Assembly (NCBI GenBank): GCA_026396175.1
Contig: JAPLXG010000006.1
Span: 76,492 to 140,491 of the forward strand
DNA: 64,000 bases
Source of the DNA: Candidatus Moraniibacteriota bacterium
GTDB taxonomy: Bacteria > Patescibacteriota > Minisyncoccia > Moranbacterales > UBA2206
Direction of reading: 5' to 3'
Made by a program: the position numbers and the translations under genes. The notes under the pieces were generated by a model. It was not told the DNA's origin. It saw only the letters and a list, made by a program, of their open reading frames with translations, and searched no databases. Shown here piece after piece: positions 55,608 to 59,095 of the stretch; position 1 is the stretch's first letter, and each line of letters begins with the position of its first letter.

Positions 55608-55717
55608 GCATCCGAAAGCGCGCTACCTGCCTACCGGCAGGCAGGCGAACGCGCCCATCCGAAAAAATAAGTTCGTAGATTCGTATTTAATTCGTAGTTT
55701 CGTATCGGTATAAATAT
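55608..55717 (+). repeat. Family B S10-cluster spacer unit (a), with family C REP inserted in its hairpin loop (GCGCGCTA|REP|CGAACGCGC)
   Basis: GCATCCGAAAGCGCGCTA...CGAACGCGCCCATCCGAA..TTCGTAGATTCGTATTTAATTCGTAGTTTCGTATCGGTATAAAT. Confidence 0.75.
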
Positions 55718-56059
55718 ATGACTCGAAGTCTGAAAAAAGGTCCTTACGTGGACGAAAGATTAATCAAAAAAGTGCTGGACAAAAAGCCAGGCGACCGAAG
55801 CGTCATTAAGACGTGGATTCGCGCTGCGGTTATTTCTCCGGAAATGGTTGGTTTTACTTTCGGCGTCTATAATGGAAAAATATTTATTTCCGTCACACCA
55901 ACAGAAGAAATGGTAGGACACAGACTGGGGGAATTTTCTCCAACACGCAAATTCACACGGCACGGAGGCAAGATGCAAAAGGAAATGGAAACAGCAGCGA
56001 AGCAAAAAGAAGCCGATGCATCGAAAGCGGCGAAGGCTTCGGATACAGCGAAGAAGTAG
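55718..56059 (+). CDS. rpsS: 30S ribosomal protein S19 (with Lys/Ala-rich C-terminal tail)
   Basis: [13 protein letters not shown]...[15 protein letters not shown]. Confidence 0.95.
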
Positions 56060-56150
56060 GCATCCGAAAGCGCGCTACGAACGCGCCCATCCGAATAAAA
56101 AATTTCGTAGATTCGTATTTAATTCGTAGTTTCGTATCGGTATAAATAAT
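56060..56150 (+). repeat. Family B spacer unit (b)
   Basis: GCATCCGAAAGCGCGCTACGAACGCGCCCATCCGAATAAAAAATTTCGTAGATTCGTATTTAATTCGTAGTTTCGTATCGGTATAAAT. Confidence 0.75.
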
Positions 56151-56726
56151 ATGAAAGTCACAGCAGAATTAAACAATTTAAGAATCTCTCCCCGCAAAGT
56201 GAAATTGGTCGCTGATTTGATTAAGGGAATGGACGCCTTGGAAGCAGTCAGTCAGTTGGACGTGGCGATTAAAAAGACCAGCGGGTATATGCAAAAACTG
56301 CTTTTGAGTGCTATTGCTAACGCGGAGAATAATTTCGGACTTTCCAAAAGCAATTTGTATGTACTGGACGCGGTGGTGGGTGCGGGACCGACGATGAAAA
56401 GATGGATGCCAAAAGCTTATGGACGCGCCGGAGAAATTTTGAAACGTACTTCAAAAGTCAAGATCGTTTTGGAAGAAAGAATCGAAGGTAAAGATCGCAA
56501 GAGCAAAGATCAGATGGAAAAAGAAAAGGCGGAAAGAATGAAAAAGGCAGCTGACAATCTGAAAAAAGAAGAGAAGAGAAAAGAAGAAGAGAAAAAAGAA
56601 GATACCAAAGAAGGTAAGACAGAAAAAGTGACGGATACGAAAGCCAAAAGTGCTGACACAACCAAGAAAGGTGCGATAGAAGGCAAGGGTTGGAAAAATA
56701 AGATATTTCACCGGAAGTCAATGTAA
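56151..56726 (+). CDS. rplV: 50S ribosomal protein L22 (with ~70-aa K/E-rich C-terminal extension)
   Basis: LRISPRKVKLVADLIKG..A...L core; long charged tail. Confidence 0.9.
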   Translation: MKVTAELNNLRISPRKVKLVADLIKGMDALEAVSQLDVAIKKTSGYMQKLLLSAIANAENNFGLSKSNLYVLDAVVGAGPTMKRWMPKAYGRAGEILKRTSKVKIVLEERIEGKDRKSKDQMEKEKAERMKKAADNLKKEEKRKEEEKKEDTKEGKTEKVTDTKAKSADTTKKGAIEGKGWKNKIFHRKSM

Positions 56727-56820
56727 TGTATGCGAAAGCGCGCTACGAAAGCGCACATCCGAAAAAAAATAAGTTCGTAGATTCGTATTTAATTCGTAGT
56801 TTCGTATCGGTAACAAAATT
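56727..56820 (+). repeat. Family B spacer unit (c)
   Basis: TGCGAAAGCGCGCTACGAAAGCGCACATCCGAAA...TTCGTAGATTCGTATTTAATTCGTAGTTTCGTATCGGTA. Confidence 0.75.
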
Positions 56821-57471
56821 ATGGGACACAAAGTAAATCCAGTTGGACTGCGCTTGGGGATCACTCAAGATTGGAAATCCAAATGGTTCAGCAAAAAAGA
56901 CTATAACAAGAACCTCAAGCAAGATATTGAGATCCGTTTGGAAGTGATGAAAAAATGGAAGAGCGCGTTTATTGCTGAAGTGGAAATTGAAAGATCTCAA
57001 GCGGCGGTAAAAATTATCATCAAAACTGCTCGTCCTGGAGTGCTTATCGGTCGTGGAGGTAGCGGAGTGGAAGATATTAAGCATTACATCCAAAACACTT
57101 TTTTCAAAAGCAATCGCAAGGGAGATCTGCGAATTGAAATCCAGGAAATTAAGAATTTTGAAGAGAGCGCGATGATTGTGGCACAAAACGTGGCGGAACA
57201 ATTGGAAAAAAGAATTCCTTTCAGAAGAGCAATGAAGATGATGCTTGAGCAAGCGATGAAAAATTCAACAATCAAGGGAGTGAAGATTGAAATGTCTGGG
57301 AGACTCGGTGGAGCGGAAATGTCACGTCGAGAGTGGCTTTCCAAAGGAACGCTACCACTGCACACACTGCGCGCCAATATTGATTTTGCCAGAGCAACAG
57401 CCTTTACGACTTATGGAGCAATTGGAGTGAAAGCGTGGTTGTATAAGGGGGAGGTGTTTGATAAAAAATAG
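56821..57471 (+). CDS. rpsC: 30S ribosomal protein S3
   Basis: MGHKVNPVGLRLGITQDWKSKWF; KH domain. Confidence 0.95.
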   Translation: MGHKVNPVGLRLGITQDWKSKWFSKKDYNKNLKQDIEIRLEVMKKWKSAFIAEVEIERSQAAVKIIIKTARPGVLIGRGGSGVEDIKHYIQNTFFKSNRKGDLRIEIQEIKNFEESAMIVAQNVAEQLEKRIPFRRAMKMMLEQAMKNSTIKGVKIEMSGRLGGAEMSRREWLSKGTLPLHTLRANIDFARATAFTTYGAIGVKAWLYKGEVFDKK

Positions 57472-57560
57472 TATCCGAAAGCGCGCTACGAAAGCGCACA
57501 TCCGAAAAAATAATTTCGTAGATTCGTATTTAATTCGTAGTTTCGTATCGGTAAAAAATT
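57472..57560 (+). repeat. Family B spacer unit (d)
   Basis: Same unit as (c). Confidence 0.75.
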
Positions 57561-57974
57561 ATGTTGATGCCAAAGAAAGTAAAACATAGAAAGGTGCAGA
57601 GAGGCGGAGCGATCCGTGGCAATGCAATGCGAGGAAACTCAATCAGTTTTGGCAGTTTTGGTTTGAAGGCAGTTAGTGCTAGTCTGGTTTCTTCTCGGCA
57701 GATTGAAGCGGCTCGTCGCGCAATGACCCGCTATGTGCAAAGAGGAGGCAAGATTTGGATTAGAATTTTTCCTGATAAACCAATGACCAAAAAAGGCGAT
57801 GAAACTCCGATGGGCAAAGGAAAGGGAGCCGTCGATCATTTTGTGGCTGTTGTGAAACCGGGAACAGTGATGTTCGAGATGGATGGAGTGAAAAGAGAGA
57901 TTGCCAAGGAAGCGATGCGCTTGGCGGCCCATAAGTTAAATTTGAAAACTAAGTTTGTGACGAAAGAAGAATAA
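57561..57974 (+). CDS. rplP: 50S ribosomal protein L16
   Basis: [15 protein letters not shown]...[12 protein letters not shown]. Confidence 0.95.
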
Positions 57975-58086
57975 GCATCCGAAAGCGCGCTACGAACGCG
58001 CCCATCCGAAAAGAAATAAGCAGAGATTTTAAAAAGCAAGAATTCGTAGATTCGCATTTGATTCGTAGATTCGAATCGGTAAATAT
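57975..58086 (+). repeat. Family B spacer unit (e), degenerate tail with 25-bp insertion
   Basis: GCATCCGAAAGCGCGCTACGAACGCGCCCATCCGAAAAGAAATAAGCAGAGATTTTAAAAAGCAAGAATTCGTAGATTCGCATTTGATTCGTAGATTCGAATCGGTAAATAT. Confidence 0.7.
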
Positions 58087-58281
58087 ATGAAGATCAAAGA
58101 GCTAAAAGAAAAGAATACTAACGAACTCAAGAAACTGTTGGCTGAAAAGGAGGAAGGTATTCGCAAGTTTAGATTTGAGCTGGCGACCAAACAAGTGAAA
58201 GGCACAAGACAGATCAGAACTGCCAAGCGTGATGTCGCGAGGATTCTCACTCTAATTGGACAAGTTGATAAGAAAGCATAA
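58087..58281 (+). CDS. rpmC: 50S ribosomal protein L29
   Basis: MKIKELKEKNTNELKKLLAEKEEGIRKFRFELATKQ. Confidence 0.9.
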   Translation: MKIKELKEKNTNELKKLLAEKEEGIRKFRFELATKQVKGTRQIRTAKRDVARILTLIGQVDKKA

Positions 58282-58299
58282 AAGCTTAAAGATAATTTT

Positions 58300-58551
58300 A
58301 TGGAGAGCCAAAAAGTAGAAAAGAATAAAATCATCACTCGCAAAAAAGGCGTGGTTGTTTCTGATAAGATGGATAAAACGATCGTGGTGGCGGTAGAAAC
58401 ATTGAAAACTCATCCGAAGTACAAGAAAAAATATCGTTCAACCAAGAAATATAAGGCGCATGACGGAGAGAATAAATATAAGATCGGAGATGTTGTTGAA
58501 ATCGTGCCTTGTAAGCCGATGAGTAAAGATAAAAATTACGTGGTAGTGTAG
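58300..58551 (+). CDS. rpsQ: 30S ribosomal protein S17
   Basis: KKGVVVSDKMDKTIVVAVETLKTHPKYKKKYRSTKKYKAHD. Confidence 0.9.
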   Translation: MESQKVEKNKIITRKKGVVVSDKMDKTIVVAVETLKTHPKYKKKYRSTKKYKAHDGENKYKIGDVVEIVPCKPMSKDKNYVVV

Positions 58552-58638
58552 CATGCGAAAGCGCGCTACGAACGCGCCCATCCGAATAAAAAATTTCGTA
58601 GATTCGTATTTAATTCGTAGTTTCGAATCGGTAAATAT
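58552..58638 (+). repeat. Family B spacer unit (g)
   Basis: GCATGCGAAAGCGCGCTACGAACGCGCCCATCCGAATAAAAAATTTCGTAGATTCGTATTTAATTCGTAGTTTCGAATCGGTAAATAT. Confidence 0.75.
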
Positions 58639-59004
58639 ATGATACAAGCAGAATCAAAATTAAATGTCGCGGATAATAGTGGCGCAAAAGTCATCAAGTG
58701 CTTCAAGGTGCTTGGTGGAACAAGAAGAAGGTTTGCTCGGATCGGTGACGTTATCGTGGCAAGCGTAAAATCAGCTGAACCGCGAGGAATGGTGAAAAAA
58801 GGCGATAAGGTACGCGCTGTGATCGTGAGACAAAGAAAAGAATTTCGTCGCAAAGACGGATCATATATTCGTTTTGATGAGAATGCCGCTGTGATTGTGG
58901 AAGCGAAAGAACCGAAAGGCACACGAATTTTTGGACCGATTGCGAGAGAGATTCGTGATCGTGGTTATGCGAAAATTGCGTCGCTGGCACCAGAGGTACT
59001 ATAG
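58639..59004 (+). CDS. rplN: 50S ribosomal protein L14
   Basis: [17 protein letters not shown]...GDVIVASVK. Confidence 0.95.
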
Positions 59005-59095
59005 GCATCAGAAAGCGCGCTACGAACGCGCCCATCCGAATAAGAAATTTCGTGGATTCGTATTTAATTCGTAGTTTCGTATCGGTATAAATTAT
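59005..59095 (+). repeat. Family B spacer unit (h)
   Basis: GCATCAGAAAGCGCGCTACGAACGCGCCCATCCGAATAAGAAATTTCGTGGATTCGTATTTAATTCGTAGTTTCGTATCGGTATAAAT. Confidence 0.75.

Follow-up and report, generated by a model that had tools for sequence, protein, structure and literature searches.

REPIN-RAYT systems (Bertels and Rainey 2011, PMC3116915) comprise short palindromic repeats dispersed over extragenic DNA, some of them inside operons, together with a small nuclease-type gene that lies between inverted copies of its own repeat; doublets of the repeat without an open reading frame (ORF) form hairpins. Bacterial miniature inverted-repeat transposable elements (MITEs), such as Correia/NEMIS, ERIC, RUP, and BOX (Delihas 2011, PMC3184786), are noncoding elements of 90 to 150 nucleotides (nt) with terminal inverted repeats, which are multicopy, lineage specific, and co-transcribed with the flanking genes. 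The ORF-bearing intervening sequences of 23S rRNA in Leptospira and Coxiella (PMC4990558) represent sporadic selfish insertions into a conserved, highly expressed unit and carry a small ORF between terminal inverted repeats of approximately 28 bp that form a stem. Here, we describe elements with likenesses to all three in a 64,000-nt stretch of DNA (the window) from a Candidatus Moraniibacteriota bacterium of the candidate phyla radiation (CPR) (assembly GCA_026396175.1, contig JAPLXG010000006.1, positions 76,492 to 140,491), where units of one repeat, termed family A, fill seven gene junctions of the S10/spc ribosomal-protein operon. The S10/spc cluster is the textbook operon in this respect: its genes are tightly packed and coupled in translation, and it is conserved universally. 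The units are quite probably ORF-less, non-autonomous, MITE- or REPIN-like derivatives of a junction-targeting cassette that encodes a GxxExxY nuclease, co-transcribed with the operon and tolerated by it. This is apparently a case of selfish DNA that colonizes even the most conserved bacterial operon.

By analogy, the system most resembles REPIN-RAYT in its behavior, with further likeness to the Correia/ERIC MITEs and to the ORF-bearing 23S rRNA intervening sequences. In contrast to REPIN-RAYT, the nuclease is of the PD-(D/E)XK GxxExxY type and not an HUH/Y1 transposase, the arms are arrays of 6- to 9-nt motifs instead of a single GC-rich stem, and the cassette resides within host operons between stop and start codons. 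The GC palindrome of the units (GCGCG-CTACGAA-CGCGC) also lacks the conserved 5′ GTAG, and none of the scanned window ORFs gave a match to Y1_Tnp or to any transposase of the DDE, Y1, serine, or tyrosine type. In size and copy number, the units correspond to MITEs (noncoding, multicopy, below approximately 300 bp), as they measure 87 to 112 nt and occur 7 times in the window and again in 8 or more other genomes; the candidate autonomous partner is the GxxExxY cassette, which carries the same arms (the matching subtype only in other genomes) and whose nuclease is a putative mobilizing enzyme. Unlike MITEs, family A has lost the complementarity of its arms, its copies are clustered in one operon, and neither a target-site duplication nor an insertion sequence-type transposase with the same ends was detectable. 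The 23S rRNA intervening sequences lie inside rRNA helices, are excised by RNase III, and encode the four-helix-bundle protein S23p, whereas the present elements reside in an mRNA operon and their ORF encodes a nuclease; at the level of sequence, the analogy holds for the cassette.

Mycobacterial interspersed repetitive units (MIRUs), reportedly described by Supply and co-workers in 1997, are said to be intercistronic operon repeats of 40 to 100 nt that share one orientation relative to transcription and form tandem direct repeats with small ORFs overlapping the flanking stop and start codons. Family A is likewise intercistronic and of a single orientation, but its units contain no such ORF and occur as one copy per junction. 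Integron attC sites are similar as imperfect palindromes of 60 to 140 nt that separate co-directional promoterless genes; however, no integrase and no RYYYAAC/GTTRRRY core sites are present here, and what the units separate is not cassettes but ribosomal-protein genes in their universal order. Readings as integron attC sites or as CRISPR-like or TIGR-like arrays were each rejected, as the "spacers" would be ribosomal-protein genes and neither core sites nor an integrase or cas-like gene was found.

Family-A units in the S10 operon

The genes for L2, S19, L22, S3, L16, L29, S17, L14, L24, and L5 were identified with Pfam on the plus strand. At seven junctions, from rplB-rpsS through rplN-rplX, a single repeat of 87 to 112 nt occupies the whole space between stop and start codons (Table 1), and the units share 82 to 96% pairwise identity. 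The head consists of two copies of CATCCGAA that flank the GC hairpin and is joined through an A-rich linker of 8 to 10 nt (32 nt in unit 5) to a 37-nt tail, TTCGTAGATTCGTATTTAATTCGTAGTTTCGTATCGG, from which 7 to 10 A/T-rich bases lead to the ATG. Hexamers in the arrays are regularly spaced (8, 11, and 8 nt). Only CCGA...TCGG and CTACGAA/TTCGTAG pair at the termini, and no consistent ORF is present. When up to 3 mismatches were allowed, the tail matched the window 7 times (6 units and a copy between rpoB and rpoC) and the 35-nt head 5 times, compared with no match of either in 100 shuffles; units missed by these patterns are more diverged or carry an insertion and were recovered by alignment. 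A preliminary description of the locus had noted seven units of the same type, an inverted tail in the rpoB-rpoC spacer, and the absence of the unit from rpmC-rpsQ and rplX-rplE; coordinates, alignment, and shuffles bear out the first, the inverted tail was located, and the two unit-free spacers measure 18 and 20 nt. A TATAAAT/TAAATAT box had been ascribed to every start, but TATAAAT ends only four of the seven units, the others ending in TAAATAT, TAACAAAATT, or TAAAAAATT. Shine-Dalgarno sequences are indeed missing from these genes; however, this is not a property of the units, because the empty junctions of relatives lack one too.

Table 1. Repeat units, cassette, and related elements in the window (window coordinates)
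Feature	Position	Strand	Location and remarks
Unit 1	55608..55717	+	rplB-rpsS; head, A-run, 4x TTCGTA tail; 20-nt palindrome 55626-55645 nested in hairpin loop
Unit 2	56060..56150	+	rpsS-rplV; head 56060-56095; GC hairpin 56070-56086 between two CATCCGAA; tail 56104-56140
Unit 3	56727..56820	+	rplV-rpsC; variant head AGCGCAC; ortholog is the long-form unit of L007
Unit 4	57472..57560	+	rpsC-rplP; head variant shared with neighboring unit 3
Unit 5	57975..58086	+	rplP-rpmC; long form, 32-nt middle segment; orthologous unit at same junction in L001
Unit 6	58552..58638	+	rpsQ-rplN; short form; flanks match L001 long-form unit at same junction
Unit 7	59005..59095	+	rplN-rplX
Inverted 37-nt tail copy	31423..31461	-	rpoB-rpoC spacer; sense strand reads as left arm (CCGATACGAA...) after rpoB stop
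GxxExxY cassette	45581..46063	+	between rpsG and fusA; left arm 45581-45616, ORF 45608-46009, right arm 46028-46063
ORF-less palindromic TACGAA/TTCGTA element	3748..3863	.	upstream of nusA
ORF-less palindromic element, TACAAA/TTTGTA arms	38554..38678	.	between ftsK and next gene
ORF-less palindromic TACGAA/TTCGTA element	52771..52888	.	S10-L3 spacer; arms 85% complementary to GxxExxY-cassette arms; missing in relatives
ORF-less palindromic TACGAA/TTCGTA element	61725..61847	.	L18-S5 junction, which is 11-24 nt long in relatives
Different small inserted repeat (TTCGTA, GC hairpin, TTCGCGAAGCGAATAAC)	54728..54773	+	L23-L2; L001, L003, and L009 have 17-24 nt
Inverted copy of the L23-L2-type repeat	59971..60034	-	L5-S14; nested 20-nt palindrome 59996-60015

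The same junctions were then compared in the congeners L001, L007, L009, L011, and L013 (82 to 86% DNA identity to the window over the ribosomal-protein genes) and in L003 and L005 from a neighboring genus (approximately 75%; S3 protein 88 to 90% identical). In L003 and L005, every junction measures 0 to 30 nt and neither family A nor another repeat is present, in agreement with the earlier remark that these genes normally abut. Among the congeners, family A occupies 0, 1, or 2 of the seven junctions. L001 carries clearly orthologous long-form units at L16-L29 and S17-L14 and no other repeats, and L007 has an orthologous long-form unit at L22-S3, a different 99-nt repeat at five junctions, and a third family at S3-L16. 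Family A is absent from the remaining three, of which L013 has a palindromic TACGAA/TACAAA element at L14-L24, L009 has such elements at three junctions and truncated remnants at two, and L011 has another family at two junctions; in L133, palindromic TACGAA/TACAAA elements are found at 7 junctions. It was within this genus that the units came into the S10/spc operon, and congeners differ in which junctions are occupied. From this comparison, they represent lineage-specific insertions with variable occupancy and replacement and not an obligatory part of the operon. Neighboring units in the window have variants in common, and at orthologous junctions the units have been shortened to a common short form, which points to local copying or gene conversion.

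An artifact of sequencing or assembly was also considered, as the window derives from a short-read metagenome-assembled genome and an S3 protein identical to that of the window is known from just one contig, of a Candidatus Moranbacteria metagenome-assembled genome. However, the units differ from one another by 4 to 18%, assemblies made independently from different samples show the same architectures (L001/L002/L132, L007/L008/L130, and L009/L010/L131), and family A is found in the other genomes mentioned above; we regard the probability of an artifact as negligible.

The box upstream of the ATG in most units raised the question of whether each unit is an internal promoter, with TATAAAT as the −10 element and every gene as its own transcription unit. 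None of the 21 sigma-70-like promoter matches between positions 52000 and 62500 falls in a unit, and their number equals the shuffle expectation (18.1 ± 4.6). Furthermore, no −35 element is present at a distance of 16 to 18 nt, and the box ends 2 to 4 nt before the ATG, so that transcription starting approximately 7 nt downstream would begin inside the gene. Canonical promoters of the TTGACA-N17-TATAAT type were found elsewhere in the window, and we consider internal promoters extremely improbable. No unit contains an intrinsic terminator-like site either, the total of such sites being at shuffle expectation; after the hairpin, the sense strand continues with CCCATCCGAA and an A-run.

The stop codons at S10/spc junctions of the window and of L130-L209 were compared as well. 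TAG is used at 16 of 26 filled junctions and at 0 of 38 short ones; with few exceptions, short junctions (up to 30 nt) have TAA as the stop (in close relatives, 38 of 38), and TAG and TGA are common where the spacer is long. TAG as a signature of the element was rejected as unproven, since relaxed constraint would explain TAG or TGA at any long spacer equally well, and TAG or TGA is found at 27 of the window's 52 long spacers, whatever their kind. This pattern suggests that the stop codon is constrained where it overlaps the A-rich initiation region of the next gene and that a long spacer relaxes the constraint.

GxxExxY cassettes and the probable origin of the units

The GxxExxY cassette of the window has 36-nt arms composed of TACGAA/TTCGTA arrays that are 97% complementary, and the start codon of its ORF lies inside the left arm. 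The encoded 133-amino-acid (aa) protein scored 88.7 bits against PF13366 (PDDEXK_3; cut-off, 22) and 91 bits against TIGR04256 (cut-off, 35) and thus exceeds the curated cut-offs of the family, and it contains both the GxxExxY and the D...ExK motifs. Residues G35, E38, D77, E87, and K89, of which the last four are catalytic, are invariant in 34 homologs, and Y41 is conserved. The structure was predicted with a pLDDT (predicted local distance difference test) of 89.7 as a minimal PD-(D/E)XK fold, and among solved structures it comes closest to those of Cas4, lambda-exonuclease-like enzymes, splicing endonucleases, and Hjc resolvases; a sequence search of solved structures yielded one marginal, unrelated match only. 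By the model and the conserved residues, the nuclease looks active.

The association of the gene with the arms was examined beyond the window. L210 carries an orthologous gene at the same rpsG-fusA junction (94% protein identity), and motif arrays adjoin each of the 7 GxxExxY genes present in the 1.56 Mb of sequence fetched, those of L076 and L078 being seen with one flank only. Four homologs picked without regard to the motif have inverted TACGAA arms of 33 to 35 nt that abut the upstream stop and the downstream start, in the contexts of S7/EF-G, DsbA-like/POR genes, NiFe-hydrogenase small/large subunit genes, and RtcB/thymidylate-kinase-like genes; the hexamers are otherwise almost absent from these loci of 4 to 6 kb. 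Arms abut the flanking stop and start wherever the neighboring genes were mapped. A cassette of Bacteroides finegoldii has 30-nt CAGAGGAC-array arms with 90% complementarity; the radA stop is 2 nt away on one side and the start of the next gene 5 nt away on the other, at a position where Parabacteroides has an empty 13-nt junction. Inverted motif-array arms of 16 to 36 nt border the ORF in all 11 CPR cassettes examined (one flank seen in L076 and L078) and in the Bacteroides cassette, and nuclease identity tracks arm similarity (Spearman rho of 0.67). These data show that the gene-arm association is specific and extends across phyla. In Treponema and Fusobacteria, GxxExxY copies have flanking inverted repeats of 16 to 17 nt, and together with the Bacteroides cassette these shorter repeats suggest that the architecture is widespread.

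The units are linked to the cassettes through their tail. The GxxExxY genes of L083 and L038 have arms of the CCGAT...ATCGG type, and their right arm aligns with the unit tail over 34 invariant columns; by this alignment, the unit tail is shown to be homologous to cassette arms. This, together with polymorphic lineage-specific occupancy and replacement by other families, upholds one of the two readings offered in the preliminary description, that of a repeat that has colonized the permissive junctions of an essential operon. We propose that the full cassette consists of a GxxExxY PD-(D/E)XK nuclease gene of approximately 128 aa between inverted arms, with NCGAA arrays on the left and TTCGN arrays on the right, inserted co-directionally between two cistrons so that the arms abut the upstream stop and the downstream start. 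The tail of the unit would be the retained right arm and the head a remodeled left arm, in which three NCGAA hexamers are kept and a GC-rich filler turns the middle one into a hairpin loop. The nuclease, acting on the arms, would mobilize the units, which may have spread between neighboring junctions by local transposition or gene conversion between units and would be co-transcribed with the operon. Family A may be tolerated, or even favored, since loss of arm complementarity would leave a U-rich unstructured leader that still permits translation of the downstream Shine-Dalgarno-less gene after stop-start coupling has been broken.

A broader proposal, which we hold to be possible rather than probable, is that GxxExxY (PF13366) genes and their motif-array inverted arms constitute an unrecognized class of mobile cassettes of approximately 500 bp with a minimal PD-(D/E)XK nuclease as their only gene. 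Such cassettes would insert precisely between the stop and start of co-directional genes, be expressed by read-through from the host operon, and give rise to ORF-less hairpin derivatives that repeatedly invade CPR ribosomal-protein operons. Published literature on GxxExxY/PDDEXK_3 is scarce, and no study of its mobility was found in it; the searchable literature yielded no account of these repeats, of CPR intergenic MITEs, or of GxxExxY cassettes as mobile elements. In one survey, PDDEXK_3 is listed as function-unknown and multiple horizontal transfers are noted. A phage vector was rejected as a candidate, with only 2 tail matches in 2.9 million viral contigs and no PHROGs or PADLOC match to the nuclease. 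As a separate observation, the GxxExxY domain of L076 lies in frame within a long ORF (6562-7998) with a partial right arm just downstream, and this may represent a cassette inserted within a coding sequence.

Several observations weigh against a derivation of the units from the cassette. The sole cassette in the window has arms of another subtype (TCTCTACGAA...) than the CCGAT-type arm of the units, the matching CCGAT-type cassettes of L038 and L083 being found only in other genomes, and binding or cutting of the arms by GxxExxY is putative. Seven copies lie within 3.5 kb and no complete copy in the other 60 kb, as would be expected from local spread or gene conversion more than from free transposition. 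No consistent target-site duplication or clean scar was found at pairs of filled and empty junctions (at least 8 genomes, and Bacteroides versus Parabacteroides; at least 14% diverged), and a fresh insertion was not caught because the nearest relatives are only 82 to 86% identical in DNA; a TA or TAA target duplication, a candidate that was rejected, fits S17-L14 and L16-L29 and not the other junctions. Each of the 22 complete family-A copies points the same way with respect to transcription. Finally, head and tail are well conserved in sequence across genera; this conservation and the uniform orientation could both reflect function instead.

The last two points would also be expected if the units were functional intercistronic RNA modules, maybe exapted from mobile DNA, in which the hairpin stabilizes or processes the upstream cistron or the U-rich tail acts, separately for each Shine-Dalgarno-less gene, as a ribosome-loading leader. 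The 22 copies start 0 to 3 nt after the stop and end 2 to 13 nt before the ATG, 48% of the wider tail-family copies have a start codon within 15 nt, the truncated elements of L009 keep only the end on the start-codon side, and RNase Y is encoded in the window. Family-A units, however, fold no better than shuffles (z-scores of −1.3 to +0.6), and over 100 operon spacers the sense and antisense strands are equal in folding energy (−22.40 versus −22.41 kcal/mol) and in G-U pairs (264 versus 261), and hence no selection on the transcribed strand is apparent. Across genomes, the GC hairpin has four invariant core pairs and a fifth pair that is broken as often as kept (approximately half of the copies each), so that covariation is uninformative. 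No unit matched Rfam, which at gathering thresholds returned two tRNAs only for the window and, at E values up to 5 between 52000 and 62500, one chance microRNA match on a palindromic element outside the units. Moreover, units are missing in relatives having the same operon, and unrelated repeats substitute at the same junctions. We thus consider an RNA module unlikely. The other reading of the preliminary description, a per-gene promoter, processing, or attenuation module, is not supported on these grounds and by the promoter and terminator searches; the comparison with related genomes, which it had called for, established lineage specificity and leaves little of the module reading, with the qualification that the units at L22-S3, L16-L29, and S17-L14 are orthologous in one congener each.

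The regular hexamer spacing and the resemblance of TTCGTA-N5-TTCGTA to direct repeats bound by winged-helix response regulators raised the further alternative that the arrays are DNA binding sites of a host regulator or nucleoid protein. The hexamers are largely kept out of coding sequence in the window (TTCGTA, 43 intergenic versus 3 coding; TACGAA, 30 versus 12), and the arrays are conserved in many CPR genomes. However, other genomes have wholly different motifs (GCTAAT, CAAAAT, CAGAGGAC, and others) at the same positions, so that no single DNA-binding specificity fits; in addition, the arrays co-vary with the adjacent nuclease gene and their occupancy is polymorphic. A role as host binding sites is therefore very unlikely, and derivation from the GxxExxY cassette remains our preferred explanation.

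Junction repeats across the CPR

To place the window in context, S10 operons were sampled through S3 alone, which renders the sample unbiased for repeats, and 57 CPR loci with 501 junctions were obtained. At least one junction of 60 nt or more is present in 40 of the 57 operons and at least three in 19, and 130 junctions are expanded overall; the loci with expanded junctions include distant CPR lineages in which S3 is only approximately 50% identical. The dominant repeat family differs from genome to genome, and almost every family consists of a short motif (TACGAA, TACTAA, TGCGAA, GCTAAT, or CAAAAT, for example) repeated in a quasi-palindromic array. A z-score below −2 was obtained in folding for 79% of the long spacers, family A being an exception. 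Among species-representative genomes, more than 116 stretches contain the tail motif, mostly from Moranbacteria with some from other CPR lineages, a number to be read against the few hundred chance matches expected in such a collection for a pattern of 16 specified bases; the extended double-hexamer architecture is also present in 98 of 139 tail-motif matches. At least 8 other genomes contain complete family-A copies, and most of these again lie in the S10/spc operon; in L047, 7 junctions are occupied. In two distant CPR loci with almost every junction expanded, L193 and L206, the L24-L5 spacer measures 413 to 467 nt and is conserved between both.

In an entire clade of CPR bacteria, S10/spc junctions constitute a hot spot of small repeats with fast turnover that involves about a quarter of the junctions and 70% of the operons. 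This raises the questions of how ribosomal-protein stoichiometry is kept once stop-start coupling has been broken seven or more times and how translation of Shine-Dalgarno-less genes is initiated after a 90-nt spacer. The repeats are a likely cause of mis-assembly and mis-annotation and can complicate analyses of CPR metagenome-assembled genomes that use ribosomal-protein clusters. The arms are candidate substrates for the widespread GxxExxY family, still listed as unknown, and as such make its function testable; should the cassettes prove to be a distinct mobile class, the upside would be substantial.

Other repeats in the window

Sister elements of the units are present in the window as ORF-less palindromes (Table 1) in which a TACGAA array after the stop and a TTCGTA array before the next start enclose an AT-rich loop of approximately 45 nt; their arms of 36 to 41 nt are 85 to 97% complementary. 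The insertions at L23-L2 and L5-S14 belong to another, third repeat family that the preliminary description had overlooked.

A 20-nt palindrome, CCTGCCTACCGGCAGGCAGG, occurs in six copies (10134-10153, 21558-21577, 31376-31395, 42634-42653, 55626-55645, and 59996-60015), each nested within another repeat or hairpin loop, and its position in the family-A head differs in relatives; it behaves like a separate mini mobile palindrome. The hairpin repeat GGTTCAGGTCAG...CTGAACCGAC is found at 16480-16535, ~42600-42670, and 63002-63057; the copy near 42634 has the 20-nt palindrome in its loop, and the other two represent "empty" forms. A GC-rich structured repeat of approximately 170 nt (CTCCCTTCGGGAGAGG...GTCCGAAGGAC...CCTTCTCCCGGAGGGCGAAGGGG), unrelated to the TTCGTA elements, has 3 copies at 6004-6195, ~7540-7730, and ~25310-25490, and a 97-nt repeat (TGTCATTCTGAGCGAAGCCGAAGAATCTGC...GCAGATCCTTCGACT) has two, at 41231-41327 and 42719-42815, on either side of an adenylate-kinase-like gene.

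Two further observations concern the operon itself. The S10-L3 spacer contains a structured segment (~52905-53030) that ends in a terminator-like hairpin, CGGCTGGTAGTGGCCG, with a T-run (53003-53018); it is conserved in L001, L003, and L005, has no Rfam match, and, lying between rpsJ and rplC, is a possible attenuator or ribosomal-protein leader. The rplV gene (56151-56726) encodes an L22 protein of 191 aa, of which Pfam covers residues 5 to 108 and the rest forms a Lys/Glu-rich C-terminal extension that is also present in relatives (189 to 194 aa).

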